Shown here one piece after another: positions 1,856 to 33,153 of a stretch of DNA of 33,153 nucleotides. Under the pieces are notes generated by a model, which saw only the letters and a program-made list of their open reading frames with translations, did not search any database and was not told the DNA's origin. Source of the stretch: a virus. Lineage: Duplodnaviria; Heunggongvirae; Uroviricota; Caudoviricetes. The DNA is taken from the IMG/VR virus record IMGVR_UViG_2529292972_000025; one strand, given 5' to 3'. Within the stretch, counting starts at the first letter, position 1; every line of letters begins with the position of its first letter. The position numbers were made by a program, and so were the translations under genes.

Positions 1856-1936
1856 CGCGAGCACCTCTTCCGGTTTTGTTGATGGTGCCATTTTAGTTAA
1901 TTTATCCTTACAAAACAAACAGATAAATAAAACACA

Positions 1937-8892: not shown

Positions 8893-8947
8893 GAGCATCC
8901 CCCTGAATAAAAACCGGAGATGATGCCAGTTACCCGTTATCTCTGCA

Positions 8948-8973
8948 TTTTCATAAACGTTGGTTTGGGAGAA
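8948..8973. repeat. Invertase crossover site, left (26 bp, hix/gix-like)
   Basis: TTTTCATAAACG-TT-GGTTTGGGAGAA; inverted relative to site at 10809-10834; 12-bp half sites around a 2-bp core like hix TTATCAAAAACC-TT-GGTTTTCAAGAA. Confidence 0.7.
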
Positions 8974-10013: not shown

Positions 10014-10437
10014 GCCATTTAATATCTGGCGCACCGGAAGTATCGACCAGTTCCAGTGCGTCCAGATAATCCAGCCACAGATTATATTGCGCCAGTTCCT
10101 CGCCTTTCAGACGACCAATAGCCGCTTTACCAGGCCATTGTTTACTGTTCATATAATCGTTGGCCTGATTAATTAGTAGCTGTCTTTCTGATTCAGTAAT
10201 TTCAATAAGTTCTTCATGCGTAGGGGCAGGAATATCCGCCCACGCGGGCAGCCCATCACCTCCGGCAATACGGATTTTTCCTTGTGGCGGTTCAGCCATA
10301 AATTCACTGATAATATTTTGACTCACCTCCTTAGCATCTGATAAATCCCATCCCTCTGATTTATATTTATCAATCATATCCACAGGGAAAAAAGCATTAT
10401 GCCTTGCGCTATAAACATATTCGTTCATATAAATCAT
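9985..10437 (-). CDS. G: Tail-fibre assembly chaperone (gpG-like)
   Basis: 150-aa ORF directly downstream of H; true start may be ATG at 10428 (AGGA Shine-Dalgarno); C-terminal ...DIKWPTPPAVQAR resembles the U-prime C-terminus. Confidence 0.7.
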   Translation of the reverse strand: MIYMNEYVYSARHNAFFPVDMIDKYKSEGWDLSDAKEVSQNIISEFMAEPPQGKIRIAGGDGLPAWADIPAPTHEELIEITESERQLLINQANDYMNSKQWPGKAAIGRLKGEELAQYNLWLDYLDALELVDTSGAPDIKWPTPPAVQAR

Positions 10438-10448
10438 CCTGAATAAAA

Positions 10449-11870
10449 TTATTCACCAACAGCCCACCAACTGTAAGTCATTGACACCTTGTCGCTGGTT
10501 GATGCAGTTCTGTAAGCAGAATTAAAGCCGGTTAATGTTGGGCCTTCTACGGACATAACGAATCCACGCCCTGCACCAAAAGGCGCACCGCCATCGCCAG
10601 AATGGGTAAGAATGGCGATATCCGCTTTTTTAGGGAAAGGGATAGGAAATGTAATCCTCATTGTTTGCGTCGATAATTTCGGCATAGCCTCACCTCGACC
10701 ATATTGCAGGATTTTCCCGTTGGGTAATTTCATCCATCCATCACCACTGGCAAACGAGGCCATGTCCGGTATCTGATTTTCCCCTGTCCCCACATTCCGT
10801 TTTGCCGCTTCTCCCAAACCAAGGTATGCGAGAAGACCAGCCACATCCTTTCCACTCAAATTAGTAAGCGTATTGTCCAGCGGTTGTTTGCCTGCCAGTG
10901 CATTAAGCACTGTTGTTGAAAAGTTAGGGTCATTCCCCAGCGCCGCCGCCAGTTCATTCAGTGTATCCAGTGCCGCAGGGGCAGAACCCACCATTGCCGC
11001 AATTGCTGATTTCACAAAAGCCGTGGTGGCAATCTGTGTATTGTTGACCGACTGTGCCGCAGTAGGTGCTGTTGGCGTTCCGGTAAGTGCGGGACTCGAC
11101 AGCGGCGCTTTCAGTGCCAGCGCATTGTTAATGGTGGTGCTGAATTTCGGGTCATTGTTAATGGCTGCGGCAATTTCTTTCAGTGTGTCCAGCGTGGCTG
11201 GCGCGCCGTTAATCAGAGCGGTAATAGCAGCCTGTACAAACGCAGTGGTCGCAATCCGCGTGGTGTTATTTCCTGCATCAGGCGTCGGCGCTTTTGGTTC
11301 TCCGGTAAATGTCGGATTATGTTTCTGTGCATACTGGGTATGAGGATCCTGTGCGGCAATGTGGTTTCTCATCTGGTCATCCACATACAGCCTTAATTCC
11401 AGGACTTCATCATCCACGTATTTACGGGTCGCCAGTACCACCGACGGGTCGATTTTCAGCGTGATGGCTTCGGTATTCGTGACAACCAGAATCATGCGGA
11501 TAGTCTGGGTACGACCACTGCCTTCCTGTAACTGCGGTTTGTACGTTTCCGGGCAGTTCGCCACCGCAATGAGTACGCCTTCATCATCATAAAGCCCAAT
11601 CTCACGGATCCAGAATCCGCCCTCGTTCTCAGGGATGATTTGCTCCGCAATAATCTGGCTCTGGTTATTCGGGTCAACACTCAGAAGATTCAGCGGCGCG
11701 ATGCGTTTCTGGTTAATCAGTTTTGTCTGTGCCGGGTCTGGTGTCGGCAAGACACCATTCGCATCACCAACGGCCATTTGCGTCAGATTCAGCTTACTGC
11801 CGAGCATCGTCGCGTTAGCCAGCCGTGCTGCGCCCTGATTAGTCAGAATGGCGTAGTATTTCACTGTCAT
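10449..11870 (-). CDS. H: Tail fibre protein gpH (constant N-terminal part fused to variable part Sv)
   Basis: 473-aa ORF; crossover site 10809-10834 lies inside it and encodes ..YLGLGE.. Confidence 0.85.
   Translation of the reverse strand: MTVKYYAILTNQGAARLANATMLGSKLNLTQMAVGDANGVLPTPDPAQTKLINQKRIAPLNLLSVDPNNQSQIIAEQIIPENEGGFWIREIGLYDDEGVLIAVANCPETYKPQLQEGSGRTQTIRMILVVTNTEAITLKIDPSVVLATRKYVDDEVLELRLYVDDQMRNHIAAQDPHTQYAQKHNPTFTGEPKAPTPDAGNNTTRIATTAFVQAAITALINGAPATLDTLKEIAAAINNDPKFSTTINNALALKAPLSSPALTGTPTAPTAAQSVNNTQIATTAFVKSAIAAMVGSAPAALDTLNELAAALGNDPNFSTTVLNALAGKQPLDNTLTNLSGKDVAGLLAYLGLGEAAKRNVGTGENQIPDMASFASGDGWMKLPNGKILQYGRGEAMPKLSTQTMRITFPIPFPKKADIAILTHSGDGGAPFGAGRGFVMSVEGPTLTGFNSAYRTASTSDKVSMTYSWWAVGE
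10809..10834. repeat. Invertase crossover site, right (26 bp)
   Basis: TTCTCCCAAACC-AA-GGTATGCGAGAA on plus strand; left half is the reverse complement of GGTTTGGGAGAA at 8962-8973. Confidence 0.7.
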
Positions 11871-20626: not shown

Positions 20627-20799
20627 TGTCAGGAGTCCTGAATAGTGATTAGAGGAGTCACATGTCGGCATCAGTTTCCCGACGATGCGCATCCTCCGCC
20701 ATCAGTCCCGGATGGCTTATCACTGACACAACAGCACCTTAGCGAATCGCGGGGCGCGACTCAGTAGCCTTGCCGTGTATTCATCACGGCGAGGTATTC

Positions 20800-22572
20800 A
20801 TGACCATCACCACAGACACCACTCTTTTACACGACCCGCGTCGTCAGGCGGCGCTGCTGTACTGGCAGGGGTTTTCCGTGCCGCAGATTGCCGCCATGTT
20901 GCAGATGAAACGCCCGACAGTGCAGAGCTGGAAACAGCGCGACGGCTGGGACAGCGTTGCCCCCATCAGCCGTGTCGAAATGAGTCTGGAAGCGCGGCTG
21001 ACCCAGCTCATCATCAAACCGCAGAAAACCGGCGGTGACTTCAAGGAAATTGACCTGCTGGGACGCCAGATTGAACGACTGGCACGGGTAAACCGTTACA
21101 GCCAGACCGGCAACGAGGCAGACCTTAATCCGAACGTCGCTAACCGCAACAAAGGCGGGCGTCGCAAACCGAAAAAGAATTTTTTCAGTGACGAGGCCAT
21201 CGAAAAGCTGGAGCAGATTTTCTTTGAGCAGTCTTTCGACTATCAGTTGCACTGGTATCGCGCCGGGCTTGAGCACCGCATCCGCGATATCCTGAAATCC
21301 CGCCAGATTGGCGCGACGTTTTATTTTTCCCGCGAGGCGCTGCTGCGTGCCCTGAAAACCGGTCATAACCAGATTTTTCTGTCGGCCAGTAAAACGCAGG
21401 CGTATGTGTTCCGCGAATACATCATCGCCTTTGCCCGGCTGGTTGACGTTGACCTGACCGGTGACCCGATTGTCCTGGGCAATAACGGCGCAAAACTGAT
21501 TTTTCTCGGCACCAACTCCAACACCGCACAAAGCCATAACGGCGACCTGTACGTCGACGAGATTTTCTGGATACCGAATTTTCAGGTACTGCGTAAGGTG
21601 GCATCAGGTATGGCCTCACAGAGTCACCTGCGCTCGACCTATTTCTCCACCCCGTCCACGCTGGCGCACGACGCCTACCCGTTCTGGTCCGGTGAACTGT
21701 TTAACCGGGGACGCGCCAGCGCCGCTGAACGCGTGGAAATCGACGTCAGTCATAACGCCCTTGCCGGTGGGCTTCTCTGTGCGGACGGCCAGTGGCGGCA
21801 GATTGTCACCATTGAGGACGCGCTGAAAGGCGGCTGCACGCTGTTCGACATTGAGCAGCTCAAACGCGAAAACAGCGCCGACGATTTTAAAAACCTGTTC
21901 ATGTGTGAATTTGTTGACGACAAGGCGTCGGTGTTCCCGTTCGAGGAGCTGCAACGCTGCATGGTCGACACACTGGAAGAATGGGAAGACTATGCACCCT
22001 TTGCCGCAAATCCGTTCGGCTCCCGCCCGGTATGGATTGGTTACGACCCGTCACACCGTGGCGACAGCGCCGGATGCGTGGTACTGGCACCGCCGGTGGT
22101 GGCCGGTGGCAAATTCAGAATACTTGAGCGTCACCAGTGGAAAGGCATGGACTTTGCCACTCAGGCGGAATCCATCCGCAAACTCACCGAAAAATACAAC
22201 GTCGAATACATCGGAATTGATGCCACCGGCCTCGGTGTCGGCGTGTTCCAGCTCGTGCGCTCGTTCTATCCCGCCGCGCGCGATATCCGCTACACGCCGG
22301 AAATGAAAACCGCAATGGTGCTCAAGGCCAAAGACGTCATCCGCCGTGGCTGTCTGGAATATGACGTCAGCGCCACCGACATCACCAGCTCGTTCATGGC
22401 TATCCGCAAGACCATGACCAGCAGCGGACGCAGCGCCACCTATGAGGCCAGCCGCAGCGAGGAAGCCAGCCACGCCGACCTCGCCTGGGCAACCATGCAC
22501 GCCCTGTTAAATGAGCCACTCACCGCCGGTATCAGCACTCCGCTGACATCCACCATTCTGGAGTTTTACTGA
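20800..22572 (+). CDS. P: Terminase large subunit (ATPase) gpP
   Basis: Start at ATG 20800 (MTITTDTTLL...) 5 nt after GAGG; ORF track starts at a TTG at 20770; divergent from O as in P2. Confidence 0.9.
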   Translation: MTITTDTTLLHDPRRQAALLYWQGFSVPQIAAMLQMKRPTVQSWKQRDGWDSVAPISRVEMSLEARLTQLIIKPQKTGGDFKEIDLLGRQIERLARVNRYSQTGNEADLNPNVANRNKGGRRKPKKNFFSDEAIEKLEQIFFEQSFDYQLHWYRAGLEHRIRDILKSRQIGATFYFSREALLRALKTGHNQIFLSASKTQAYVFREYIIAFARLVDVDLTGDPIVLGNNGAKLIFLGTNSNTAQSHNGDLYVDEIFWIPNFQVLRKVASGMASQSHLRSTYFSTPSTLAHDAYPFWSGELFNRGRASAAERVEIDVSHNALAGGLLCADGQWRQIVTIEDALKGGCTLFDIEQLKRENSADDFKNLFMCEFVDDKASVFPFEELQRCMVDTLEEWEDYAPFAANPFGSRPVWIGYDPSHRGDSAGCVVLAPPVVAGGKFRILERHQWKGMDFATQAESIRKLTEKYNVEYIGIDATGLGVGVFQLVRSFYPAARDIRYTPEMKTAMVLKAKDVIRRGCLEYDVSATDITSSFMAIRKTMTSSGRSATYEASRSEEASHADLAWATMHALLNEPLTAGISTPLTSTILEFY

Positions 22573-23606
22573 TGAGCAAGAAAAAAGGGAAAACACCGCG
22601 ACCTGCGGCAAAAACAATCACCGCCAGCGCCCCGAAAATGGAAGCATTCACCTTTGGTGAGCCGGTGCCGGTACTCGACCGCCGTGACATTCTGGATTAC
22701 GTCGAGTGCATCAGTAACGGCAGATGGTATGAGCCACCGGTCAGCTTTACCGGTCTGGCAAAAAGCCTGCGTGCTGCCGTGCATCACAGCTCACCGATTT
22801 ACGTCAAACGTAATATTCTGGCCTCGACATTTATCCCGCATCCGTGGCTTTCCCAGCAGGATTTCAGCCGCTTTGTGCTGGATTTTCTGGTCTTCGGTAA
22901 TGCGTTTCTGGAAAAGCGATACAGCACCACCGGTAAGGTCATCAGACTGGAAACCTCACCGGCAAAATATACCCGCCGTGGTGTGGAGGAGGATGTTTAC
23001 TGGTGGGTGCCGTCCTTCAACGAGCCGACAGCCTTCGCGACCGGCTCCGTGTTTCACCTGCTGGAGCCGGATATTAATCAGGAGCTGTACGGCCTGCCGG
23101 AATATCTCAGCGCCCTTAACTCTGCCTGGCTGAATGAGTCGGCCACGCTGTTCCGCCGCAAGTATTACGAAAACGGCGCACATGCCGGATACATCATGTA
23201 CGTCACCGACGCATTGCAGGATCGCGATTACATTGACTCAATCCGCGAAAACATGGCTAATTCGAAAGGCCGCAATAACTTTAAAAATCTGTTTCTCTAT
23301 GCACCGCAGGGAAAGCCAGACGGCATCAAAATTATCCCGCTCAGTGAAGTGGCAACGAAGGACGATTTTTTTAATATCAAAAAAGCCAGCGCCGCTGACC
23401 TGCTGGACGCGCACCGCATCCCCTTTCAGTTGATGGGCGGCAAGCCGGAGAACGTCGGGTCGCTGGGTGATATTGAGAAAGTGGCAAAGGTCTTTGTCCG
23501 CAATGAGCTTATCCCGTTACAGGACAGGATTCGGGAAATAAACGGCTGGCTCGGCCAGGAGGTCATCCGCTTTAAAAACTACTCACTGGACACTGACAAC
23601 GGCTGA
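22572..23606 (+). CDS. Q: Portal protein gpQ
   Basis: 344-aa ORF, ATG overlaps P stop; P2 order. Confidence 0.9.
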   Translation: MSKKKGKTPRPAAKTITASAPKMEAFTFGEPVPVLDRRDILDYVECISNGRWYEPPVSFTGLAKSLRAAVHHSSPIYVKRNILASTFIPHPWLSQQDFSRFVLDFLVFGNAFLEKRYSTTGKVIRLETSPAKYTRRGVEEDVYWWVPSFNEPTAFATGSVFHLLEPDINQELYGLPEYLSALNSAWLNESATLFRRKYYENGAHAGYIMYVTDALQDRDYIDSIRENMANSKGRNNFKNLFLYAPQGKPDGIKIIPLSEVATKDDFFNIKKASAADLLDAHRIPFQLMGGKPENVGSLGDIEKVAKVFVRNELIPLQDRIREINGWLGQEVIRFKNYSLDTDNG

Positions 23607-23775: not shown

Positions 23776-23794
23776 GTGCTTTCCCCGCCTCGCC
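23776..23794. other. cos cohesive-end site (19 nt)
   Basis: GTGCTTTCCCCGCCTCGCC is the reverse complement of GGCGAGGCGGGGAAAGCAC, the P2 cohesive end as I recall it; located just beyond Q as expected. Confidence 0.7.
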
Positions 23795-23953
23795 CGCCCG
23801 CTTCATGGGGCGGTTTTAATGCAGATGCACGAACACGCCGAAGGCGCGCCAGTACCGGCGGCGCTCACACGTGACTGGGAAGGAAAACGCATGCGATTCG
23901 ATGCAGTAATGCATGCAGAGCTAAAAATGGCAGAACATACTGAAAAAACGCAT

Positions 23954-23981
23954 AAAAAAACCGGCATTCAGGTTGCCGGTT
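23954..23981 (-). terminator. Intrinsic terminator for the minus-strand small-gene transcript
   Basis: Stem AACCGGCA (23959-23966) / TGCCGGTT (23974-23981), 7-nt loop; A-run 23954-23960 on plus gives a U-run on the minus strand. Confidence 0.6.
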
Positions 23982-24000
23982 TGAGTCGACTTCATTGTGG

Positions 24001-24102
24001 TTACTGGCCGCGCAATGCGCCAATAATACTGGTAAGGCAACAAGTGGCAACAATCAGCAAAAAAACCGTCGTCCACGGATTTTCATAAATGAGAGATAAC
24101 AT
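24001..24102 (-). CDS. Hypothetical 33-aa hydrophobic peptide (MLSLIYENPWTTVFLLIVATCCLTSIIGALRGQ)
   Basis: Not in ORF track (under 60 aa); ATG at 24102, AAGGA about 11 nt upstream, one predicted transmembrane stretch, ends just before the terminator. Confidence 0.35.
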   Translation of the reverse strand: MLSLIYENPWTTVFLLIVATCCLTSIIGALRGQ

Positions 24103-24118
24103 ATTGATAAAGATCCTT

Positions 24119-24250
24119 TTATTTGTTCATTCTGATGTGGTTTAAAAGGTGTTTGATAACGACCGTAAGCTCATCTTTACTGGCTTGCTCGACCATTTTT
24201 TCGGTGTAGCTTTCCACTTCGCGGGAACTCAGGTCGTTATTTGAGGCCAT
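24119..24250 (-). CDS. Hypothetical small protein (43 aa from ATG 24250; 64 aa if from ATG 24313)
   Basis: Open frame in cargo island; start ambiguous; MASNNDLSSREVESYTEKMVEQASKDELTVVIKHLLNHIRMNK. Confidence 0.35.
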   Translation of the reverse strand: MASNNDLSSREVESYTEKMVEQASKDELTVVIKHLLNHIRMNK

Positions 24251-24311
24251 TACAGTGAGTCTCTTTGCCCAGTCGGCATAAGGGTCTTTAATTGATGAAA
24301 GGGAATTATGC

Positions 24312-24749
24312 ATGTCCAAAAACCTCGAATTATTTAACCAGCAGACGGCTGAAATCTTTGCGGTGCTATGGGATAACTTTCCTGTACCACAAGTCATCAC
24401 CTACAAAAAATTTAACGCCGCGTTACCTGATGACTACTTTGACCAACTTAACTCACCAGAAATGAAAGCACTGAATCAGTTGCGTAGTGTGGTTGATGGC
24501 ACATTCACTTTCCTAAGCGAAAACGGCTATATTCTGTACGGAACAGACCATCAGACCGGTTTTCATGATGTGCGCCTGACCGAGAAAGCACTCGCGGTGC
24601 TCAACAAAAAACCCGAAGCACTTGGCGGTAATGAAACGATGGGAGATAAAATTATCAGTGCAGTAAAAGACGGGACTCCAGGTGTCATTGCTGGAGCAGT
24701 GACAAACCTGTTGACTCTTGGTGTTAATTTTGTGACGTCAGCTTCATAG
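24312..24749 (+). CDS. Hypothetical 145-aa cargo protein, no family recognised
   Basis: ATG at 24312 with AAGGGA Shine-Dalgarno 7 nt upstream; convergent with the RT gene. Confidence 0.6.
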   Translation: MSKNLELFNQQTAEIFAVLWDNFPVPQVITYKKFNAALPDDYFDQLNSPEMKALNQLRSVVDGTFTFLSENGYILYGTDHQTGFHDVRLTEKALAVLNKKPEALGGNETMGDKIISAVKDGTPGVIAGAVTNLLTLGVNFVTSAS

Positions 24750-24775
24750 CTAACTACTTTCTGAGGTTTCTAATC

Positions 24776-24818
24776 AACGCCGCCTGCACCGAAAGTAAAT
24801 TCCTGCACTGGCGGCGTT
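24776..24818. terminator. Hairpin between convergent genes (terminator-like)
   Basis: 9-bp stem AACGCCGCC (24776-24784) / GGCGGCGTT (24810-24818); no immediately adjacent U-run on either strand. Confidence 0.3.
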
Positions 24819-24873
24819 ACTAACGCCAAAGTTATTTTAATTATTGATGCTATTATGCAATACATTCAATATG

Positions 24874-25824
24874 TTAATTTGCAGTATTAGCCTTTAAAGT
24901 AAGCACCTTAGATTTGTAACGTTGCTCAATCACTCCCATTGAATGCAAACGACCAAAGAGCTTTTTGGCAATGATTGTTTCTCTCGCATTTTCGGCGTCT
25001 TTAATTATTTTCCAATAATCTATTTCCCTAGCCATCAAAAAATGCTGCTCATTCCTAACTTTTAATGCATTGCCTAATACAATAACTCCAGTTACCAACT
25101 TAGGCTTATCTCTGGCATATAGTTTTGTTTTCGTTGGGTGTATAACATGCCCATGCTTATTAACGATCTTACGAATTACAGCGCAGAACAATCGATTTAC
25201 GTTACTACCTGAAAAAGTGAGATCATCAACATAAACAGTCATGTTAACTCGTAACTTTTGGCAAAGTTGATATATTTCACCAAACATTCTTGAATTTGCA
25301 AAATATGCCAACGGCATACTGATGCGACTACCTGTTGGCAATCGGTCATGACAAGTACATATGTGAGACAAAACATCAGCAACATCAGATGACATTTTCA
25401 TCACCGAAAAGAAAAAAGAAAATATCATCCCTCTTGTAGTTGATGGAAAAAAAGCTTTAATATCTGTTGTCATCATCTTTTCATTATTAAGATGAGCTTT
25501 AGCATTCGTCACATTAGAGCACTTCTTCTTCCCTGAGTGCAGATATTCTGGCAAAGCAATCCGCGATAACAAACTTGCAATTCGTGTATGTACAAGTTCT
25601 AGTTTTTCTAAAGGCTTTTGTATTTTTCGTGCTTTCCCTTTTTTAGAAAGCTGCTCAAAAACGGAATAGTTTCCTTCATCTTTTCTCAAAGAGTATAAAT
25701 CATCAAGACTAACACAAAGCAAATTCGCCAGTTTTCTTTTACTTTTGAGTTTATAAAATGGCGAATCCATTATGTCATAAGATTTATTTTTAGTATTAAC
25801 TTTAAGCTTTTTCCGTTTTTTCAT
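24874..25824 (-). CDS. Reverse transcriptase, retron-type (defence-associated)
   Basis: 316-aa product with NAKAH (NAxxH), TTDIKAFFPS (motif A), LPTGSRISMPLAYFANS (motif B region), YVDD (catalytic motif C) and LVTGVIV (VTG) in the canonical order. Confidence 0.85.
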   Translation of the reverse strand: MKKRKKLKVNTKNKSYDIMDSPFYKLKSKRKLANLLCVSLDDLYSLRKDEGNYSVFEQLSKKGKARKIQKPLEKLELVHTRIASLLSRIALPEYLHSGKKKCSNVTNAKAHLNNEKMMTTDIKAFFPSTTRGMIFSFFFSVMKMSSDVADVLSHICTCHDRLPTGSRISMPLAYFANSRMFGEIYQLCQKLRVNMTVYVDDLTFSGSNVNRLFCAVIRKIVNKHGHVIHPTKTKLYARDKPKLVTGVIVLGNALKVRNEQHFLMAREIDYWKIIKDAENARETIIAKKLFGRLHSMGVIEQRYKSKVLTLKANTAN

Positions 25825-26110
25825 TTTTATTACTTACCCACTCCAGAACATCCAGAACTTTACCGGCTAAATTTAAACGCAATCGCTTAGACAAACGGCC
25901 TTGCGTGCCTAATGATTCCGAAAAGAATACTAAAGAGGATACTGGTATGTCGAAATGGGAGGCGTAACGCTCTAAGACTTCAATCGACGGTGACCAAACT
26001 CCGCTTTCAAGCGATACTATTTTGTCTTTTGGAATACCTAAAGATGAAGATAACTCAACTATTGATTCTTTATGGTATTGCCTTATTAAACGAAGGGCTT
26101 TATGTAACAT
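25802..26110 (-). CDS. XRE-family helix-turn-helix protein, RT-associated
   Basis: Start at ATG 26110 (GGAG 6 nt upstream) gives MLHKALRLIRQYHKESIVELSSSLGIPKDKIVSLESGVWSPSIEVLERYASHF...; stop overlaps RT start by 23 nt. Confidence 0.7.
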   Translation of the reverse strand: MLHKALRLIRQYHKESIVELSSSLGIPKDKIVSLESGVWSPSIEVLERYASHFDIPVSSLVFFSESLGTQGRLSKRLRLNLAGKVLDVLEWVSNKNEKTEKA

Positions 26111-26146
26111 AGGCAACTCCATGCTATTGAAACTAGGGAGGACGCA

Positions 26147-26302
26147 TTACTCATCACCCCCTTCGAAGTAGTCCAGTGCTCGAGTAACTAAATCAAACAG
26201 TCTAATACCCCATTTGATTAATTTCCAAGCGTAACCAGCCCACTTTTTCAGGTTTGACTTGTTCTGCGCCTGCTGTTCGTTGGTTAATTTATCATTCTTC
26301 AT
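26147..26302 (-). CDS. Hypothetical 51-aa protein, first gene of RT operon
   Basis: ATG at 26302 with AAGGAG Shine-Dalgarno 7 nt upstream; MKNDKLTNEQQAQNKSNLKKWAGYAWKLIKWGIRLFDLVTRALDYFEGGDE; ORF track's 130-aa version has no plausible upstream start. Confidence 0.55.
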   Translation of the reverse strand: MKNDKLTNEQQAQNKSNLKKWAGYAWKLIKWGIRLFDLVTRALDYFEGGDE

Positions 26303-26667
26303 GATTTGCTCCTTATGCCCATAGTGTGCAAACGGTATGTCTGCTCCAACACTATGGTTCGCCCTCATAAGGATGAGATTGAACAGCACTAGCCCCCTGC
26401 TCCACGAACCCTTGGTCGCCCAAAGGGTTCGAATACCCATACGCCATACCTCCTGATCCTGTGACTCCTGTCGCTGGCAGGGGCGTTGCGCGGGGTAAGT
26501 GTTAGAAAGCGTTAACTTTCCACGGGTAAAAATACCCAATTGATGGCGATATATCTCACTAACTAACCAATGTTTGCATCATAACAAGTAAACCGTTGTA
26601 TTTGCTCCCCCTGTATATGATATTTTTTCATATAAAACAAATATATAATAAGTTAAAGGCATATCAA
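26303..26667 (-). promoter_or_regulatory. Promoter plus ~330-nt structured leader of the RT operon (candidate ncRNA)
   Basis: Candidate sigma70 promoter on minus strand: -35 TTGATA (26667-26662), -10 TATATT (26645-26640); leader carries nested hairpin 26311-26372 and 9-bp-stem hairpin 26405-26431. Confidence 0.3.
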
Positions 26668-26710
26668 TGCAACATGGATATGCTTTCATTGCATTGAATT
26701 TTAAAGTGTT

Positions 26711-28999
26711 TTACATGAAAAATGACTCTTCATCTCGAAATCCGAACCACTCATTAATAACCATATACGTGAATTTTTTCCCGTCATAATTTACGGTTGC
26801 CCCACGCGCCAGCGCCTCAATCTCCCATCGCTGAGGCCTGATACCGTTCTGAGCAAGGTCAACGCGGATACGGGTAATTTGCATTCGTTCCGACCGGGTC
26901 AGTCTGGCCGATGGCGCTATTTCATGCGGTTTTAACGGGCTTCCGCTTCTTTGCTGACGGTTTGGTGTTCTCAGGTCGTGTTTTAATGCGCCCCTGAGCG
27001 CCCTCACGACCTCCGGGTCATTCCATTCGATAACACCGTCATCAACCAGATTAAGCACTGCGGCGGCGTGCTCAGAAGGTGTGGGAGCCGGTAACGAAGT
27101 ATCACCACCGGTGAGCTTTCCACAGTTATTGACAGGACTCCGAGGCGCGGCGATGCCGCTTTTTAAAGTCAAAGGCTCCACGACCGGAACTTTCGGCACA
27201 ATGCGCCAGTCCGTCGTTCTGGTGATATGAATATGACGCGCGCCGAGATGCGGCGCGTAAATGCCGACCACTCTCTCGACTTCTTCCTCGTACTCGTTAA
27301 CGTCATCCGACGGGCTACGGGCGACTCTGACAGTCTGGCAATCGCGCGGAACATTTGCCCCACCCTGCGCGCTGATATACAACGCAAAATCGCCACTGTC
27401 TGCGGCAGCACGTGCAGCCTCGACGCGTTCGTCAAACTCATCAGCAATGCTGACGCCGCGAGGCAATTTGCGTAGTTCACGGTAAGCCCCCATTGTCGGC
27501 AGGCCAACCGTTTTAAATTGCGGGATACGCCACGTTGACGCCCATGCGGTAACAGCCGCTGCAGTGTCTTTCAGCGGCCTGCCGGTATCGTTATCGAGCT
27601 GACCATCCAGTGCATAGCCGTCGATGTTTTTTGAAATGTATTTCGCGATATATCCCGCTGCACCGCCCCGGTTAAGGTGTTTTGCCTGAAAACGGTTTCG
27701 CGCAGCTCCTCTTTCATCGCCATCCTCTTTGAGCGCATAGCGACGCATGATTTCGATAATCTGGTTACGCTGGCGTGGATTACAAAAAAGCATCATATGC
27801 CAGTGCGGTGTTCCATCGTGGTGTGGCTCGACGACTCGCAAACCGTAGACCTGTAAATCATTATCCTTGAATGCCGTGCGCATCAGGCTCCAGATACGGC
27901 AGAGATAACGCTGCGCATCCTTTGGATTAAATGCCTCATCGTTCCAGCCGTGATTTAGCTGGACGGTTTTACTTTCGCCTTTTCCGACCTGACGTGTCGG
28001 GTGATACTTTGACGGCGTGGTCAGCGTGATAAACATCCCCACATCACCCTCTGCGGCGGCGTAACGCTCAATACCGGCAATGGTGTTCATCAGCTCCATC
28101 CGGCGAATTTCAGGATTAGAAATACTGCCCATCACCTTACTGATAAGGTCGATGCGTTCGCCGGTTTCCCTGTTTTCGAGGTCACACGATTTAAGAAATT
28201 CCAGATTTGCCTGGCGGCGCGCACGCACATCACGAATGGCGTGTTTACTGGCATAAGGAGAACGGTCTTTATTGACCTCCCCGACAGCAATCAGTAACGC
28301 CTCATGCCAGCGCATACGCTGGCCTTTAAGCTGATGAGTCCACCACTCATCGTTAAACAGGCGGGCAATGGCAGAATATGCCTGCCTCGTGGTCATCTGC
28401 CCTTTACGGTATTTTTTCCAGTAAAGCGGGGAAATATTGAAAGCACGTGCAGCGCCAGCAACATGACCATACAGGTGAGCCTGCGCCTCATCCGTAAACA
28501 GCGATTCTTTTTCGCCATGCGCATCCACCCAGGCATCGCAGATTTCCTCATACATCATGAAAAGCTGCGATGAGATACGGGCGGCAAACTTTTTCAGCTC
28601 CTTGTCATTCATTCCAGGCAGGCGCGCATAGTGGTCACGCTCTGCCAGAAACAGCAACGACGCGTCGGTGTTCATTTCATGGCGCTGATTCACGCGCTCA
28701 ATGCGCGGCCATAAACGACGCTGAAAAGTGGATGTGAGGAAATAAAACCCGTGCACCGGGCTTTTATTGCGCCGGATATAGTCATAGCGTGAAGTAAACA
28801 GCGAGCGCAAAAAGTAAGGCAGGCGGTTAATCGTGGATAAAACACCTTGCACCTGACGCATCTCGTCACGTGTAAGGGGTCTTTCGCGCCCGACAGCCTC
28901 ACGTGGCGCGTTCCATGCATAAGCACCGGTAAACGTCTTACCGGTGCCTGCGGCAAATGCTGACGAAGGGACAAAATGCCCGGAGGCTTTAACGGCCAT
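26711..28999 (-). CDS. A: Replication initiation protein gpA (rolling-circle endonuclease)
   Basis: Start taken at ATG 28999 (MAVKASGHFVPSSAFAAGTGK...); ORF track begins at a TTG at 29041. Confidence 0.85.
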   Translation of the reverse strand: MAVKASGHFVPSSAFAAGTGKTFTGAYAWNAPREAVGRERPLTRDEMRQVQGVLSTINRLPYFLRSLFTSRYDYIRRNKSPVHGFYFLTSTFQRRLWPRIERVNQRHEMNTDASLLFLAERDHYARLPGMNDKELKKFAARISSQLFMMYEEICDAWVDAHGEKESLFTDEAQAHLYGHVAGAARAFNISPLYWKKYRKGQMTTRQAYSAIARLFNDEWWTHQLKGQRMRWHEALLIAVGEVNKDRSPYASKHAIRDVRARRQANLEFLKSCDLENRETGERIDLISKVMGSISNPEIRRMELMNTIAGIERYAAAEGDVGMFITLTTPSKYHPTRQVGKGESKTVQLNHGWNDEAFNPKDAQRYLCRIWSLMRTAFKDNDLQVYGLRVVEPHHDGTPHWHMMLFCNPRQRNQIIEIMRRYALKEDGDERGAARNRFQAKHLNRGGAAGYIAKYISKNIDGYALDGQLDNDTGRPLKDTAAAVTAWASTWRIPQFKTVGLPTMGAYRELRKLPRGVSIADEFDERVEAARAAADSGDFALYISAQGGANVPRDCQTVRVARSPSDDVNEYEEEVERVVGIYAPHLGARHIHITRTTDWRIVPKVPVVEPLTLKSGIAAPRSPVNNCGKLTGGDTSLPAPTPSEHAAAVLNLVDDGVIEWNDPEVVRALRGALKHDLRTPNRQQRSGSPLKPHEIAPSARLTRSERMQITRIRVDLAQNGIRPQRWEIEALARGATVNYDGKKFTYMVINEWFGFRDEESFFM

Positions 29000-29264
29000 G
29001 TGTGCCAAAAGCCTCTGAACAACGCTTGCTGAGTTGCTCAACCTGCGCGTTTAAATCGGCAAAAGATTTTGCGCTTCCGGTCAGAATATCGTGATGCATC
29101 AGGCCGGAAACGAGCTGGCTTAATTTCGGGTAATAACCAACCACCGCCAGCCATTCCTGACCGGCGTTTTTACCGCTTTCCGCTCTCTTTTTCTCGTGGA
29201 GAATAAACTGAAAGCTGTCACTGGTAACGACATAACGTTCGCCAATTTCAATACGAATACTCAT
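28989..29264 (-). CDS. P2 orf83-like protein
   Basis: 91-aa ORF, GGAG Shine-Dalgarno, overlaps A start; position as in P2. Confidence 0.6.
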   Translation of the reverse strand: MSIRIEIGERYVVTSDSFQFILHEKKRAESGKNAGQEWLAVVGYYPKLSQLVSGLMHHDILTGSAKSFADLNAQVEQLSKRCSEAFGTHGR

Positions 29265-29485
29265 GCCGTTCTCCGGTAATGTTTGTTTTTTGCTTCAAAG
29301 ACTGACTGGCAGGAAACACAACGCGTGGCTGACGGATAAGCCGCACGACGGGCAGCAGGTATTGGCGCATCACACTCTTCGCAAACCAGCGCAGAAGCAC
29401 AGCAATGTTTTACCCTTGCCGCGTTAATCTGGCGCTCCAGTAATTCAGCCTGTTGTTCCTGAATGAAATCTACGTTGTCCGGCAT
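29261..29485 (-). CDS. DksA/TraR-type C4 zinc-finger protein (P2 orf82-like)
   Basis: 74-aa product with CxxC...CxxC motif (CEECDAPIP...RCVSCQ). Confidence 0.65.
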   Translation of the reverse strand: MPDNVDFIQEQQAELLERQINAARVKHCCASALVCEECDAPIPAARRAAYPSATRCVSCQSVFEAKNKHYRRTA

Positions 29486-29787
29486 TACCAGTTCCTTTTG
29501 TCGTTCAGTTTCTTAAATTCATCAGCGCAATAGCTGGCGAGTTCTGTCGTTAATTTAGTCAGTTCATCCACGGAGGAGATTTGCTTGTGGAATACAGCGC
29601 GTTTAACAAGTAAATTGACCACATCAGACAGGAGGTTTAATTCATTCTGATAAATCGCGATAACAGATTCAGTTATGTCGCGCTTTTCTTTATCAAGACC
29701 AAGTTGAATAAGAGACAAATCGCCATTTTCCATAACGGCGATTTTTAAGGCGTTATTCAGTAATACAATTGAACGAGAACAGGACAT
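29485..29787 (-). CDS. P2 orf81-like protein
   Basis: Start at ATG 29787 with GGAGG 8 nt upstream (track start 29790 is TTG). Confidence 0.6.
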   Translation of the reverse strand: MSCSRSIVLLNNALKIAVMENGDLSLIQLGLDKEKRDITESVIAIYQNELNLLSDVVNLLVKRAVFHKQISSVDELTKLTTELASYCADEFKKLNDKRNW

Positions 29788-30011
29788 CAAAGCACCTCCC
29801 CGCGAGACAATCCGATATTGTGAAATTTTTCCGACTCCTGACTGAGCAGCTCGACTATCTCCACGCGGGATAACTCCGCCTTTGTGATGTGGCGAATCAT
29901 GGCGTCAAGATGAGAAGAAAAGCGCGTCGCAGCGTCGGCCTGTGCTTCGGTTCTGGCCTGTTGCAGCAGTAATGCGTATATACCGCACTGATTTTCAGAA
30001 ACTGTATGCAT
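29787..30011 (-). CDS. P2 orf80-like protein
   Basis: 74-aa ORF between B and orf81. Confidence 0.6.
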
Positions 30012-30074
30012 GACTTTCTCCAGGCAAAAAGAAGCCCCGCACGATTAAGTGCGTTAAAAACTCTGGTTAATTAC

Positions 30075-30575
30075 TTAATGCAGATATTGCTCTGGTTTTA
30101 CCGACGTCAGAATTGTCGGTGCATACTCAAACAGACTGAATAATTCACGTAATGCACGGAATAAAGCATCACGCCAGTAACATGATTCTTCATTAATTCG
30201 CCAGTATGGCTGGTTAAATTCTTTTTCTGTCAGTCGTGCGTGCATAAATAAAGTGCGACGCTGACTGACTGTTAAAAAACTAATATATGCATACTCACTT
30301 GCGCCAACCTGACGGCGTTTTGAGAATGCCCCACGCAATTCATCAATTGCACATACCAGTCGTTCACGTTCGACGTCGTTCATTTCTTCAAAACGCATCG
30401 TTGCGTGACGCTGTTTTAACTGCGCATGGAAGCAAACCGTTAGCCGTTCACGTTCCATCATCTGATTATAATAATCGCATGTCTCCTGCCAGCGAGGGAC
30501 GGCCAGATGCTTACCAATTATCCGGCGCATAGCTGCTGGCTGTTTTTCAACGAGATTGAGCGTCATCACTGTCAT
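30075..30575 (-). CDS. B: Replication protein gpB (helicase loader)
   Basis: Start at ATG 30575 (MTVMTLNLVEKQ...) 7 nt after GGAGGG; P2 order. Confidence 0.8.
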   Translation of the reverse strand: MTVMTLNLVEKQPAAMRRIIGKHLAVPRWQETCDYYNQMMERERLTVCFHAQLKQRHATMRFEEMNDVERERLVCAIDELRGAFSKRRQVGASEYAYISFLTVSQRRTLFMHARLTEKEFNQPYWRINEESCYWRDALFRALRELFSLFEYAPTILTSVKPEQYLH

Positions 30576-30742
30576 TTCCATACCCTCCGGCTTTTCAGAA
30601 AGGTCAGAGCCTTTTTTAACGGACTCTGTTTTTTGGTACGGATAATGATTCCCTTACGCCCCTTACCGTGGGTGATGGTGAAGTCAATCGCCCTGGAGCT
30701 TTCGTTACGCAGTAACTGAGCAATACAACGAGGCTCATTCAT
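30572..30742 (-). CDS. P2 orf78-like small protein
   Basis: Start at ATG 30742 with AAGGAG 6 nt upstream (track start 30766 is GTG). Confidence 0.5.
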   Translation of the reverse strand: MNEPRCIAQLLRNESSRAIDFTITHGKGRKGIIIRTKKQSPLKKALTFLKSRRVWK

Positions 30743-30752
30743 ACGGTTCTCC

Positions 30753-31028
30753 TTAACGTGGTTCACCGAGACCTAACCACATCAACCAGCCGTCACGAAT
30801 CTCTTTAGGGCGGCTTTCATAAGCCAGTTTTAGTCCGTTATTCCATGCCGGAAGGTATACCCAATATTCACCTGCACGACCTGAAGCTGATTGTGGATCG
30901 GTCATATCAATTACAGGCAGCTTTCCTTTATCGATCATCCGACGAACCGCTCCTGTCGATTTTCCTATTAGTTTTGCGAACTCCTGATAAGGAATCGCAT
31001 CAGTCATGAGTGTTACTTGCTTGCTCAT
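30753..31028 (-). CDS. cox: Cox excisionase / repressor of Pc
   Basis: 91-aa product MSKQVTLMTDAIPYQEFAKLIGKSTGAVRRMIDKGKLPVIDM... with HTH; first gene of early operon, divergent from C. Confidence 0.9.
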   Translation of the reverse strand: MSKQVTLMTDAIPYQEFAKLIGKSTGAVRRMIDKGKLPVIDMTDPQSASGRAGEYWVYLPAWNNGLKLAYESRPKEIRDGWLMWLGLGEPR

Positions 31029-31040
31029 GTCGTCCTCTAG

Positions 31041-31150
31041 CCCTCATGAATTGCGTTTAATGTCTTATAATGCCTTTTAGTGCCCACATCCAAGCACTAA
31101 ACAATCTACATCTAAACTAAATACTATTGAGATCTAAACACTATGTCAAA
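31041..31150. promoter_or_regulatory. Immunity switch: convergent Pc / Pe promoters with two 8-bp operator repeats
   Basis: Plus-strand Pc: TTGCGT (31041-31046), TATAAT (31066-31071). Minus-strand Pe: -35 TTTGAC (31150-31145), -10 TAGTAT (31126-31121). Direct repeats ATCTAAAC at 31110-31117 and 31132-31139 flank the Pe -10, 22 bp apart. Confidence 0.65.
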
Positions 31151-31442
31151 CACGATAAGCGAGAAGATAGTCTTAATGCGAAAATCAGAGTATTTGAGCA
31201 GACAACAACTTGCTGATTTAACAGGGGTTCCGTATGGCACGCTGAGTTACTATGAAAGTGGTCGTTCAACACCTCCAACAGATGTCATGATGAACATCCT
31301 GCAGACCCCACAATTCACCAAATACACTTTATGGTTCATGACCAATCAGATCGCTCCTGAGTCCGGGCAAATTGCGCCCGCTCTCGCACACTTTGGGCAA
31401 AACGAAACAACGTCGCCCCACTCCGGTCAAAAGACTGGTTAA
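31143..31442 (+). CDS. C: Immunity repressor C
   Basis: 99-aa HTH product MSNTISEKIVLMRKSEYLSRQQLADLTGVPYGTLSYYESG...; between cox and int. Confidence 0.9.
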   Translation: MSNTISEKIVLMRKSEYLSRQQLADLTGVPYGTLSYYESGRSTPPTDVMMNILQTPQFTKYTLWFMTNQIAPESGQIAPALAHFGQNETTSPHSGQKTG

Positions 31443-31557
31443 CAATTCATCGTGAATATATTCATCACAAGTGCCTACTATTGGTGGCTAAATTTCAGCC
31501 ACCACGAAAAAAGCGATTAGTAGTCGCAAAAAAACACACCACTCGGAGGGTTTTCTG

Positions 31558-32571
31558 ATGGCAATCAAAAAACTCGATGATGGTCGATATGAAGTGGACA
31601 TCCGCCCTACTGGACGTAATGGAAAACGCATCCGTAGGAAGTTTGATAAGAAAAGCGAAGCTGTCGCTTTCGAGAAATACACGTTGTACAACCACCACAA
31701 TAAAGAATGGCTATCAAAACCAACAGACAAGCGACGTCTGTCGGAGCTGACACAGATCTGGTGGGATTTAAAGGGTAAACACGAAGAGCATGGGAAATCT
31801 AATCTTGGAAAAATTGAAATCTTCACAAAAATAACGAATGACCCATGCGCATTTCAAATTACGAAATCCCTTATCAGCCAGTACTGCGCCACCCGAAGAA
31901 GTCAGGGTATTAAACCTTCGAGTATCAATCGTGATTTAACATGTATTAGCGGCATGTTTACAGCCCTGATTGAAGCGGAGTTATTCTTTGGTGAGCACCC
32001 TATCAGAGGGACAAAGAGGCTTAAGGAGGAAAAACCAGAAACAGGCTATCTCACACAGGAAGAAATTGCCTTACTGCTTGCAGCACTTGACGGCGACAAT
32101 AAAAAGATTGCGATTCTTTGCCTGAGTACAGGAGCACGTTGGGGAGAAGCAGCTCGTTTGAAAGCAGAAAATATCATCCATAACCGCGTCACGTTTGTTA
32201 AAACGAAAACAAACAAACCACGCACCGTCCCGATCTCAGAGGCTGTTGCCAAAATGATCGCGGATAACAAACGAGGTTTTTTATTCCCTGATGCTGATTA
32301 CCCTCGCTTCAGACGAACAATGAAAGCAATAAAACCGGATTTGCCAACGGGGCAAGCCACACATGCACTAAGGCACAGCTTTGCCACTCATTTCATGATT
32401 AATGGAGGAAGTATTATCACGCTACAACGGATACTAGGTCACACGCGGATTGAGCAAACTATGGTTTACGCTCATTTTGCGCCAGAGTACCTTCAGGACG
32501 CCATTTCTCTTAATCCGCTAAGAGGTGGTACTGAGGCCGAGAGTGTCCACACAGTGTCCACAGTAGAGTAA
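31558..32571 (+). CDS. int: Tyrosine integrase
   Basis: 337-aa product, GGAGG Shine-Dalgarno, C-terminal HALRHSFATHF...GHTRIEQTMVYAHF catalytic region; ends 80 bp before attR. Confidence 0.9.
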   Translation: MAIKKLDDGRYEVDIRPTGRNGKRIRRKFDKKSEAVAFEKYTLYNHHNKEWLSKPTDKRRLSELTQIWWDLKGKHEEHGKSNLGKIEIFTKITNDPCAFQITKSLISQYCATRRSQGIKPSSINRDLTCISGMFTALIEAELFFGEHPIRGTKRLKEEKPETGYLTQEEIALLLAALDGDNKKIAILCLSTGARWGEAARLKAENIIHNRVTFVKTKTNKPRTVPISEAVAKMIADNKRGFLFPDADYPRFRRTMKAIKPDLPTGQATHALRHSFATHFMINGGSIITLQRILGHTRIEQTMVYAHFAPEYLQDAISLNPLRGGTEAESVHTVSTVE

Positions 32572-32650
32572 CGTTTAAGGGCTTTCAGTGGTAATTTATG
32601 CCGCTCAAACCCGCATTGTACCGTTGAAAGCCCCTACTGGTGACACCCTA

Positions 32651-32678
32651 AATCTCCCTTACACGGGCTTATTTTTTA
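32651..32678. repeat. attR core (28 bp)
   Basis: Identical to 1507-1534. Confidence 0.8.
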
Positions 32679-32835
32679 TGCATAAGCCCTATCCCTGATA
32701 ACCGTCTTCCATTGACCACATCGATAGAATCTCCCTTCATAGCACGATGCCTTTCACGTAACGGCATCGTGCTCGCACAGGTTCCGGCTAAGCACAACCA
32801 GAACGCGCATGTTTGACGCTTACCAAAAAATATTC

Positions 32836-33153
32836 TCACTCTCCACATTTGAATGTCAGACGAGCGACGCCATGTAATCCTGCACCTTCTGTCTTCAGGT
32901 CAACTATCTGCATTTTTTTGCCCTGAGTAACACAGAAATGGGCTGCATCATTTTTTACTATATTTTCTGCACCAGATATTCTGCCCCTGGCTAAAGAAGC
33001 TTCGGCTTCGGTGTAGTATTGGTTATCGAGTTTACGCTGAATATTACTTTTATATGCAAGACCAAATTTACCGATACTTGTCTCATCATTATGCACAGCA
33101 CAACCAGACATAAGAAAAACACTAATTAATGATATAGCAGCTATCTTTTTCAT
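32836..33153 (-). CDS. yegR: Putative lipoprotein YegR
   Basis: 105-aa product MKKIAAISLISVFLMSGC... with signal peptide and lipobox; start codon at window edge; host flank. Confidence 0.7.
   Translation of the reverse strand: MKKIAAISLISVFLMSGCAVHNDETSIGKFGLAYKSNIQRKLDNQYYTEAEASLARGRISGAENIVKNDAAHFCVTQGKKMQIVDLKTEGAGLHGVARLTFKCGE

Follow-up and report, generated by a model that had tools for sequence, protein, structure and literature searches.

Modular cargo with a predicted complete Type VI retron in the tin/old hotspot of a P2-like prophage of Escherichia coli

Which genes have taken the place of tin and old between the cohesive end site (cos) and replication gene A, and do they form one defence system or several independent pieces? 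This question is raised by IMG/VR virus record IMGVR_UViG_2529292972_000025, a stretch of 33,153 nucleotides (hereafter the window), which is a P2-like (Peduovirus) prophage of Escherichia coli lying in the orientation opposite to the standard P2 map. A first-pass annotation, made from the sequence alone, described positions 23795-26710 as an AT-rich cargo island with a reverse transcriptase (RT) operon and small genes of no known function, situated at a variable anti-phage defence hotspot. The position is indeed such a hotspot: in P2-like prophages, Rousset et al. (2022; PMC9122126) catalogued 1,650 arrangements at the cos-proximal locus between gpQ and gpA, which they define as a hotspot of defence genes, crediting its recognition to Odegrip et al. 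(2006). The analysis described here indicates that the island is hotspot cargo made of exchangeable parts, and that its functional system is very probably a complete Type VI retron with a mechanism like that of the retrons Vpa2 and Eco12.

The limits of the island are set by two features.

23776-23794, no strand assigned: cos, the 19-nt P2-type cohesive end GTGCTTTCCCCGCCTCGCC, which aligns to the annotated P2 cosR
26711-26738, minus strand: last codons of gene A, inside the non-P2 segment

The cos sequence aligns with P2 cosR (7576-7594 of the compared P2 stretch) within a 48-nt match of 98% identity, so that position 23795 is the first base past cos. Homology with P2 (NC_001895) stops at 23823, 29 nt after the end of cos, and restarts at 26739, 28 nt within the 3′ end of gene A. 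The non-P2 segment proper is therefore 23824-26738; it occupies the place of P2 orf91, tin and old, and has no P2 counterpart inside. Replacement of tin and old, as proposed at first, is thus borne out by alignment and extends to orf91, whereas the proposed extent holds only for its start just past cos, since the alignment limits lie at 23824 and 26738 and the flank up to 23982 is not cargo (see below). The last ~10-17 residues of the A protein differ from those of P2, the C-terminus reading ...MVINEWFGFRDEESFFM, unlike ...PVADEWPGFSTVMEWT in P2, and resembling ...WFGFQDEVSFFI in the retron-bearing phage P22H1, with which the final ~10 residues (WFGF.DE.SFF) are common. The junction of the recombination therefore falls within gene A, whose C-terminus moves together with the cargo. 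A search for flanking repeats that might point to a cassette-insertion mechanism found short chance matches only, none of them marking the junctions.

The segment lies between the portal gene (gpQ) and the endonuclease gene (gpA), beside cos, and its content differs among colinear relatives. As the first-pass annotation had stated with respect to P2, the flanks are colinear: in other P2-like phages both sides are ~96% identical and enclose differing genes, among them those for the cdt toxin, Fic/VbhT, a retron Ec48 effector, paraMORC, DUF4238 and DUF4209, and others. The segment belongs to the accessory cargo of the classical tin/old hotspot. The claim that it is AT-rich also stood up to a sliding-window calculation: the GC content of 23795-26710 is 0.403, compared with a mean of 0.541 (standard deviation 0.038, minimum 0.443) for equal-size windows elsewhere in the 33 kb, and the five 2.9-kb windows of lowest GC in the entire sequence all begin at 23851-24051. 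The fall in GC starts near 23900 and ends near 26800, the first ~100 nt past cos still having 60% GC; the RT gene has 34%. The early and immunity end of the prophage (29042-33153) also lies below the structural genes, with a GC content of 0.448, and low GC by itself is therefore not specific to the cargo island.

The right-hand part of the island, 24874-26588 on the minus strand and directly downstream of gene A, is identified by profile and motif evidence as a complete Type VI retron with four components.

24874-25824, minus strand: retron RT, 316 aa, WP_000746343, Type VI (PADLOC RT_VI)
25802-26110, minus strand: Cro/C1-type helix-turn-helix (HTH) protein, 102 aa, WP_001310277 (PADLOC HTH_VI)
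26147-26302, minus strand: small protein SP, 51 aa, WP_001302990, MKNDKLTNEQQAQNKSNLKKWAGYAWKLIKWGIRLFDLVTRALDYFEGGDE, predicted toxic effector
26128-26588, minus strand: hybrid RNA (hyRNA), a non-coding 5′ part with the SP open reading frame (ORF) embedded; conserved core common to all relatives

The RT matches PADLOC RT_VI at 4.1e-105 (349 bits) over profile positions 1-278 of 279; the second-best model is RT_III-A (5e-45, 152 bits), and all 25 best matches are retron RTs. The best NCBIfam matches are likewise retron families, the PHROG family is phrog_2825 (2e-141), and the Pfam RVT_1 match is weak and generic. The protein contains the motifs NAKAH107, LPTG162, YVDD198 and VTG244. Besides the catalytic YxDD, the NAxxH and VTG motifs are typical of retron RTs. 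The HTH protein matches HTH_VI at 7.7e-31 (positions 1-91 of 92), and the 3′ end of its gene overlaps the RT start by 23 nt. The SP ORF is preceded by the Shine-Dalgarno (SD) sequence AAGGAG 7 nt upstream, has an annotation both in RefSeq and in Klebsiella phage ST147-VIM1phi7.1, matches phrog_15287 (2e-38) and is conserved in at least 10 relatives. The position and size class of SP, and the SP-HTH-RT order, are kept in retrons with RT identities of just 46% (Acinetobacter, SP of 54 aa) and 36% (a high-GC viral contig). A 130-aa ORF at 26147-26539, which extends the SP frame through the structured RNA, was rejected as a gene, RefSeq and phage records calling the 51-aa SP alone. In the classification of Mestre et al. 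(2020), Type VI is defined by an RT of the Type VI clade, a Cro/C1-type HTH gene upstream of or overlapping the RT gene, and an SP gene upstream of the HTH gene. The RT clade, the HTH partner and the SP-HTH-RT order were all found in the window, together with a structured RNA in which the ribosome-binding site (RBS) and also the start codon are sequestered and a long-range inverted repeat is present. ORF and profile scans thus confirm the RT operon and small genes first noticed between cos and A; the small toxin ORF (SP) and the structured RNA, which form the mechanistic core, had been missed.

The consensus fold of the hyRNA, from 5′ to 3′, comprises the following elements, preceded by a promoter-like site.

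26640-26667, minus strand: tentative promoter-like site TTGATA-16-TATATT, upstream of the hyRNA; not in all relatives
5′ end of the hyRNA, minus strand: small hairpins
26434-26497, minus strand: long stem-loop of 64 nt, candidate msd (reverse-transcription template), of variable sequence, with an 18-nt insertion in two relatives
26405-26431, minus strand: hairpin GAACCCUUUGGGCGACCAAGGGUUC, almost invariant; its loop holds direct-repeat copy 1 (GGGCGA, 26421-26416)
26393-26404, minus strand: inverted repeat IR1, pairing with IR2 (26128-26140) just past the SP stop, so that the SP ORF is closed into the RNA scaffold
26310-26373, minus strand: riboregulator, whose stem UCCUUAUG/CAUAAGGA (26373-26366 with 26317-26310) buries the SP SD sequence
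26291-26305, minus strand: small hairpin AUCAUGAAGAAUGAU, containing the SP start codon (26302-26300); helix 15 of alignment A2, 5 pairs, 100% paired

Folding of the 528 nt that run from the promoter-like site as far as the HTH start gave a minimum free energy of -179.7 kcal/mol (z = -5.0). Ten distinct sequences from IMG/VR and phage records were aligned and pairs were counted directly, with slid structures and 500 shuffles as controls. In this set a 151-pair consensus is 98.3% paired, with 9 compensatory pairs as against 0-3 in the slid controls. When a diverged retron of E. coli C5 (described below) was added, 95.5% of cells were paired and 22 compensatory pairs were counted, as against 3-7 in slid controls, and none of the 500 shuffles reached 22. 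The alignment length was 519 columns. In Rfam, searched both at the gathering and at E-value thresholds, neither a family for the retron RNA nor a group II intron RNA was found, the sole match in the window being CyaR, outside the island.

Support is distributed over the individual elements. The long stem-loop (helices 6-8 of alignment A2) has both compensatory pairs and length variation, and is a candidate for the reverse-transcription template. The adjoining hairpin at 26405-26431 is invariant in the 10 sequences and shows one compensatory change, U-A to C-G, in E. coli C5. In the riboregulator (helices 12-14 of A2 and 14-16 of A3), all eight SD-stem pairs are invariant, the inner hairpin has compensatory pairs that switch A-U/G-C or U-A/C-G, and the internal loop holds direct-repeat copy 2 (GGGCGA, 26364-26359). 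Both GGGCGA copies are unpaired and invariant; the Acinetobacter retron has GGCGACACCC twice at equivalent places, one of them in a hairpin loop. All 12 pairs of IR1 with IR2 are 100% paired in every sequence, and two of them are G-U/A-U switches; in E. coli C5, one pair of the adjoining helix has changed in compensatory fashion from G-C to A-U (columns 380/503). Further covarying helices lie within the SP coding sequence.

Studies of Vpa2 provide the framework for reading this arrangement. There, the HTH protein represses reverse transcription and SP alone is toxic; the multicopy single-stranded DNA (msDNA) measures 63 nt over the long stem-loop, or 86 nt under RecBCD inhibition, accumulates on infection or with lambda Red/Gam, and is needed for SP derepression (Zhang et al., 2025; bioRxiv 10.1101/2025.10.22.683967). 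The same work describes, in Type VI hyRNAs, a conserved short (7-nt) direct repeat in the msd loop and the riboregulator loop, and E. coli Eco12, which defends against lambda-vir and has no basal msDNA. The present analysis establishes the gene identities and their intactness, the RNA structure and its covariation, the sequestration of RBS and AUG, the repeat pair, the mosaic distribution and the AT-richness. Every sequence-level element of the Vpa2/Eco12 model is present, and that mechanism is therefore taken as the most likely; msDNA production, its trigger, the toxicity of SP and defence itself we infer by analogy with the published retrons. In a lysogen, the hyRNA, HTH protein and RT would form one complex. 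In the uninfected cell, the RBS and start codon of SP would be locked in stems and the HTH protein would restrain reverse transcription. The trigger would be an infecting phage bringing functions for recombination or against RecBCD (lambda Red and Gam are examples), upon which msDNA templated by the long stem-loop and its neighbouring hairpin would build up. In its 5′ part this msDNA would carry the complement of the GGGCGA loop repeat and could pair with the second copy in the riboregulator loop. The SD sequence would thereby be freed, the small hydrophobic SP translated, and growth of the infected cell stopped (abortive infection).

Several points weigh against this reading. Homologues of SP found by search are all enterobacterial, with no detectable sequence similarity outside Enterobacterales; any homology to a tested SP is presumptive. 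The direct repeat GGGCGA is likened to the published 7-nt one by its placement. The msd assignment and the ends of the transcript are predictions, and the promoter-like site, with 10 of 12 consensus matches, is no better than chance, the density of such sites in the region not being above that of shuffles. Type VI retrons are, moreover, mechanistically diverse: Retron-Sen3 makes single-stranded DNA (ssDNA) and SP constitutively, under post-translational control (bioRxiv 10.64898/2026.04.27.721009). As to transcription, homology with the Klebsiella-type loci begins only at 26588, the upstream sequence including the promoter-like site being replaced there, and between the stop of gene A and the retron RNA (26588-26720) no sign of an intrinsic terminator was found. 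Read-through from the phage early operon may therefore be a further source of retron transcripts.

Whether the island is one unit can be judged from its left-hand part, which was aligned with seven homologous loci (74-84% identity), differences being counted per codon position, and from the distribution of both parts.

23795-23982, minus strand: cos-proximal flank ending in an intrinsic terminator (stem 23982-23958, then a T run; terminator scan)
23819-24088, plus strand: 89-aa ORF, RefSeq WP_001177885, judged spurious; counterpart annotated in phage Midge
24001-24102, minus strand: orf33, possible 33-aa single-pass hydrophobic peptide MLSLIYENPWTTVFLLIVATCCLTSIIGALRGQ, of uncertain status
24119-24313, minus strand: orf64, 64 aa, WP_000551925, phrog_2454 (4e-41), cos-proximal
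24312-24749, plus strand: orf145, 145 aa, WP_000042038, phrog_2266, divergent from orf64
24776-24827, no strand assigned: GC-rich hairpins AACGCCGCC...GGCGGCGTT, then GGCGTTACTAACGCC and a T-rich tail, between the convergent orf145 and RT genes

In a count by DNA similarity over 5,426 complete E. coli genomes, 99-100 (~2%) have the retron module, which spans 24874 to at least 26588 and comes as two alleles: the window type (at least 95% identity) in 28 genomes and the P22H1 type (~84% identity) in 71. Nearly all Type VI retrons that DNA similarity relates to this one in those genomes belong to these two alleles. The stretch with orf64 and orf145 was counted in 94 genomes and the entire island in just 29. 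The retron without the left module is found in ~71 E. coli genomes and in Peduovirus P22H1, where it lies beside a different 454-aa gene; the left module without the retron is found in ~65 E. coli genomes, in phages Midge and FSL SP-004, and in strains 40EC, O25b:H4 and BS74R-D, the neighbours of orf64-orf145 in retron-less loci being DinI, Fic, ComEC/Rec2 or an AAA-ATPase with a GNAT protein. The junction can be placed closely: homology with left-module-only loci ends at 24736-24821 and that with retron-only loci begins at 24874-24884. The hairpins at 24776-24827, picked up by the terminator scan, supply the plus-strand terminator and mark the module junction. In Klebsiella phage ST147-VIM1phi7.1 both halves are adjacent, each ~80% identical to the window. 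Judged from these comparisons, the island is a mosaic whose modules assort independently; the first-pass annotation was right about foreign cargo, but its single cassette dissolves into parts.

A third, more diverged Type VI retron was encountered in E. coli C5 (NZ_CP010122 2215996-2222336, locus 1652-3450), at a non-P2 site near yeiP/yeiQ and beside YkgJ-family and DUF4236 genes; its SP has 51 aa, its HTH protein 98 aa and its RT 316 aa. Only the hyRNA/SP part of this retron was found by DNA search (75%), so that conservation is higher in the RNA than in the RT. An RT scan of a collection with one genome per species yielded two distant loci, and a scan of a viral collection 20 usable loci.

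The genes of the left-hand part fall into different classes. Phage 186, Yersinia phages and EtG match the cos flank up to 23968-23981, and 186 has a terminator annotated there; the ~190 nt beside cos (to 23982) are accordingly assigned to the backbone common to 186-like and Yersinia P2-like phages, not to the cargo. The 89-aa ORF over this flank contains stops in six of the seven homologous loci and has no third-codon-position bias (e.g. 26/26/23 differences), so that it is probably no gene but an artefact of annotation at the cos flank and terminator. The frame of orf33 has the same length in six of the seven loci and is broken in one, shows no third-position bias, reaches a maximum 19-residue hydropathy of 2.38 and is annotated in Klebsiella phage ST147-VIM1phi7.1. 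For orf64, third-position bias (1/3/14 and 21/13/41 differences) and a frame intact in all loci mark it as a real gene. Its AlphaFold2 model is a three-helix bundle (predicted local distance difference test score 72.8) with the invariant motifs NNDLSSRE and LLNHIR; a PDB profile search and Foldseek gave no informative match, and no relatives with assigned function were found by structure or sequence. There are 74 homologues in Enterobacterales, two clusters of which each occur on more than 1000 contigs. In Salmonella the order is A, 60 aa, DinI, 69 aa, orf64, 60 aa, portal, with orf64 on the strand of A and orf145 absent. Being very common in Salmonella near cos with neither orf145 nor other cargo, on thousands of contigs, orf64 is a backbone gene of the 186/Eganvirus type.

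A clear third-position bias and a frame intact in all loci likewise mark orf145 as a real gene. An N-terminal winged-helix domain and a C-terminal hydrophobic helix of small residues (124-142) are predicted for its product, and the start codons of orf64 and orf145 overlap in ATGCAT. It occurs in just 11 of 50,697 phage records and is a separate insertion. Among phages, orf145 has a single distant homologue (34% identity over 85% of the protein), encoded where PhiKM, a phage of uropathogenic E. coli, bears no annotation (PQ738613.1 31113-31454). Scans of Pfam, NCBIfam and PADLOC gave no match for orf64, orf145, orf33 or SP, and PHROGs placed the small ORFs in families of no assigned function only. 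The suggestion that every gene of the island is a defence candidate must therefore be narrowed: RT, HTH and SP belong to one known system, orf64 is backbone and the 89-aa ORF is no gene, which leaves orf145 as the sole remaining open defence candidate among the non-retron genes. A broader scenario, which taken as a whole we consider rather improbable, sees in orf145 a lysogenic-conversion gene of P2-like prophages that moves independently and whose role would be defence, superinfection exclusion or counter-defence. The prophage would express it from the strand opposed to that of phage early transcription; during lytic growth, read-through from the A operon, antisense to orf145 and sense to orf64, would then form a built-in switch between lysogeny and lysis, and, with no recognizable terminator between A and the retron, early transcription of the prophage would alter the hyRNA dosage on induction.

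Among other explanations of the island, one keeps the Type VI retron and changes its mode of action to that of Sen3, in which the HTH protein is an antitoxin and RecBCD loss the trigger (Garcia-Rodriguez et al., 2026; bioRxiv 10.64898/2026.04.27.721009). SP and RT-dependent ssDNA would then be constitutive, control would be post-translational, and RecBCD loss during infection would release the toxin without new msDNA synthesis. The Salmonella source of Sen3 is a close host, a basal stem holds the RBS of its SP and IR1-IR2 enclose the SP ORF, both as in the window, and mutation or removal of the HTH protein is toxic in both published systems. However, SPs of the Sen3 lineage (cl2075) have ~79 aa with a 25-residue N-terminal extension, as against 51 aa here and 55 aa in Vpa2, and its main stem-loop has ~166 nt, as against 64 nt here and a 63-nt msd region in Vpa2. 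These two differences place the Sen3 mode below that of Vpa2, and an invariant loop direct repeat, a candidate counterpart of the one proposed for pairing of msDNA with the riboregulator, is present here; the tested E. coli Type VI retron, Eco12, has no detectable baseline msDNA; we regard the Sen3 mode as possible but unlikely. That the RT is no retron RT at all, and is instead an Abi-P2/AbiK-like or DRT/UG defence RT or a group II intron maturase, is exceedingly improbable. An Abi-type RT does occur at this locus in some P2-like coliphages (Odegrip et al., 2006, as cited by Rousset et al., 2022), and Pfam by itself returns a weak generic RVT_1 match, yet no DRT or Abi model is among the 25 best PADLOC matches, RT_VI is matched over the full profile (4e-105), NCBIfam points to retron families, and the NAxxH and VTG motifs, the HTH_VI partner and the structured upstream RNA are all in place. 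For the maturase, Rfam found no group II intron RNA, and 316 aa are too short for X/En domains.

Two further explanations concern the island as a whole. Were the entire 2.9 kb a single co-adapted cassette, the retron would have further components or regulators, for example a sensor or an anti-toxin, in orf145 and orf64 (and orf33). The adjacency of the halves in both the window and Klebsiella phage ST147-VIM1phi7.1, at ~80% identity, and the predicted nucleic-acid-binding fold of orf145 speak for it; but the independent assortment described above, with the retron alone in ~71 genomes and P22H1 and the left part beside unrelated cargo in ~65 genomes and several phages, argues against a role of orf64 or orf145 in the retron. 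Since orf64 also occurs alone on thousands of Salmonella contigs and the published Type VI operons require only hyRNA/SP, HTH and RT, we give this cassette little credence. The island might also be a decaying or silent remnant, its AT-rich DNA silenced by H-NS and of no present function. Its GC content of 34-45% is typical of horizontally acquired DNA bound by H-NS, and H-NS silencing of immunity loci is reported in a 2026 preprint. Against decay stand the full-length match of all retron ORFs to their profiles, the compensatory evolution of the RNA, the purifying selection on orf64 and orf145, and the 100% conservation of the island in several genomes together with its presence in ~2% of complete E. 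coli genomes; silencing, for its part, bears on expression and not on identity. A remnant is thus very improbable, and a complete Type VI retron of the Vpa2/Eco12 kind within modular cargo remains the preferred reading.

The remaining features of the window are the following.

1-1362: peptidase-U32 host gene, the host flank at one end
1445-1530: small RNA CyaR/RyeE (Rfam match of 100.7 bits); the prophage end abuts this locus
20770-22572, plus strand: terminase gene, left of the island, after the tail and head genes
22572-23606, plus strand: portal gene, left of the island
26711-29041, minus strand: replication gene A (Phage_GPA, 1e-123), right of the island and followed by early genes
31558-32571: integrase gene, within the early end of the prophage

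Over the whole island, the sequence has 100% identity with the chromosomes of two E. coli O157:H7 strains, FRIK944 and BB24-1. Elsewhere in the prophage, a serine recombinase gene (Resolvase and HTH_7, 8299-8898, minus strand) adjoins an oppositely oriented tail-collar fragment (8920-9411, plus strand), and two opposed tail-fibre assembly genes (9411-10013, plus strand; 9985-10437, minus strand) lie downstream of the tail fibre gene H (10449-11870). This region, 8299-10437, has a low GC of 0.44-0.49 and looks like an invertible host-range segment where P2 has Z/fun.

The hotspot, the exact arrangement and the retron type have all been published or catalogued, and in that sense the finding is sound but ordinary. 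The arrangement of the window is listed by its RefSeq protein ids in Table S5A of Rousset et al. (2022; PMC9122126), and a system with an identical HTH sequence is labelled 'Type-VI retron' in their Table S5B, with 132 occurrences. What is added here are the exact boundaries, the mosaic structure, the rejection of one annotated ORF, the reassignment of orf64 to the backbone, the flagging of orf145, and covariation support for the hyRNA of the window lineage, loop repeats included. In practice, orf64 should not count as cargo, and the 89-aa RefSeq ORF is probably no gene. The locus also offers a natural example of a Type VI allele, carried by ~2% of complete E. coli genomes including O157:H7, in which compensatory evolution of the hyRNA and invariant loop repeats are as the translational-derepression model predicts.

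Compared with the characterized retrons, the window element is closest in architecture to Vpa2 and Eco12, the latter likewise from E. coli. The operon order is ncRNA (non-coding RNA), SP, HTH, RT; SP has ~50-55 aa (55 in Vpa2) and an aromatic/hydrophobic C-terminal helix; a structured transcript of ~470-500 nt contains both the template and the SP ORF, with RBS and AUG in stem-loops; its 3′ end pairs back to the first arm, the long stem-loop has ~63-64 nt, and a direct repeat of similar placement lies in a candidate msd loop and in the riboregulator loop. Unlike Vpa2 and Eco12, the window retron lies in a P2 prophage, right after gene A and with no recognizable terminator between, and the likeness is drawn at the level of architecture. 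With Sen3 it has in common the SP-HTH-RT organization, the HTH/RT overlap, the RBS in a basal stem, the enterobacterial host, the long-range IR1-IR2 bracket around the SP ORF and covariation within the SP coding region. It differs in the lengths of SP (51 aa, as against 79 aa with an N-terminal extension) and of the stem-loop (64 nt, as against ~166 nt), and in that the ssDNA and SP of Sen3 are constitutive.

Other RTs are encountered at the P2 locus. The RT of P2-EC30 is reportedly of the Abi type and lacks a retron ncRNA; Abi-P2 is the name for the Abi-type RT at this locus. Retron Ec48 (Type IV) in phage pro147, the Type IC and Type II retrons of Table S5B (Rousset et al., 2022) and the P2-EC30 RT have in common with the window retron the same hotspot and an RT-based abortive-infection cargo, but they belong to other RT clades and have other effectors (a two-transmembrane protein, Toprim, NDT). 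P2 old and tin themselves are similar in their position from cos to A and as non-essential lysogenic-conversion genes that exclude other phages. Their proteins are unrelated to those of the retron, Old being an ATPase-nuclease and Tin a T-even exclusion protein; they have no RT or RNA component, and their transcription leads away from cos, on the strand opposite to that of the retron. The exclusion of lambda by P2 Old depends on red/gam of lambda and on RecBCD of the host (the Spi phenotype), a signal of the class that is reported to trigger Type VI retrons. By analogy, the hotspot may have swapped one sensor of a Red/Gam/RecBCD-class signal, Old, for another, the Type VI retron, and the replacement of old, a gene itself responsive to this class of lambda functions, suggests that function has turned over inside a single niche.

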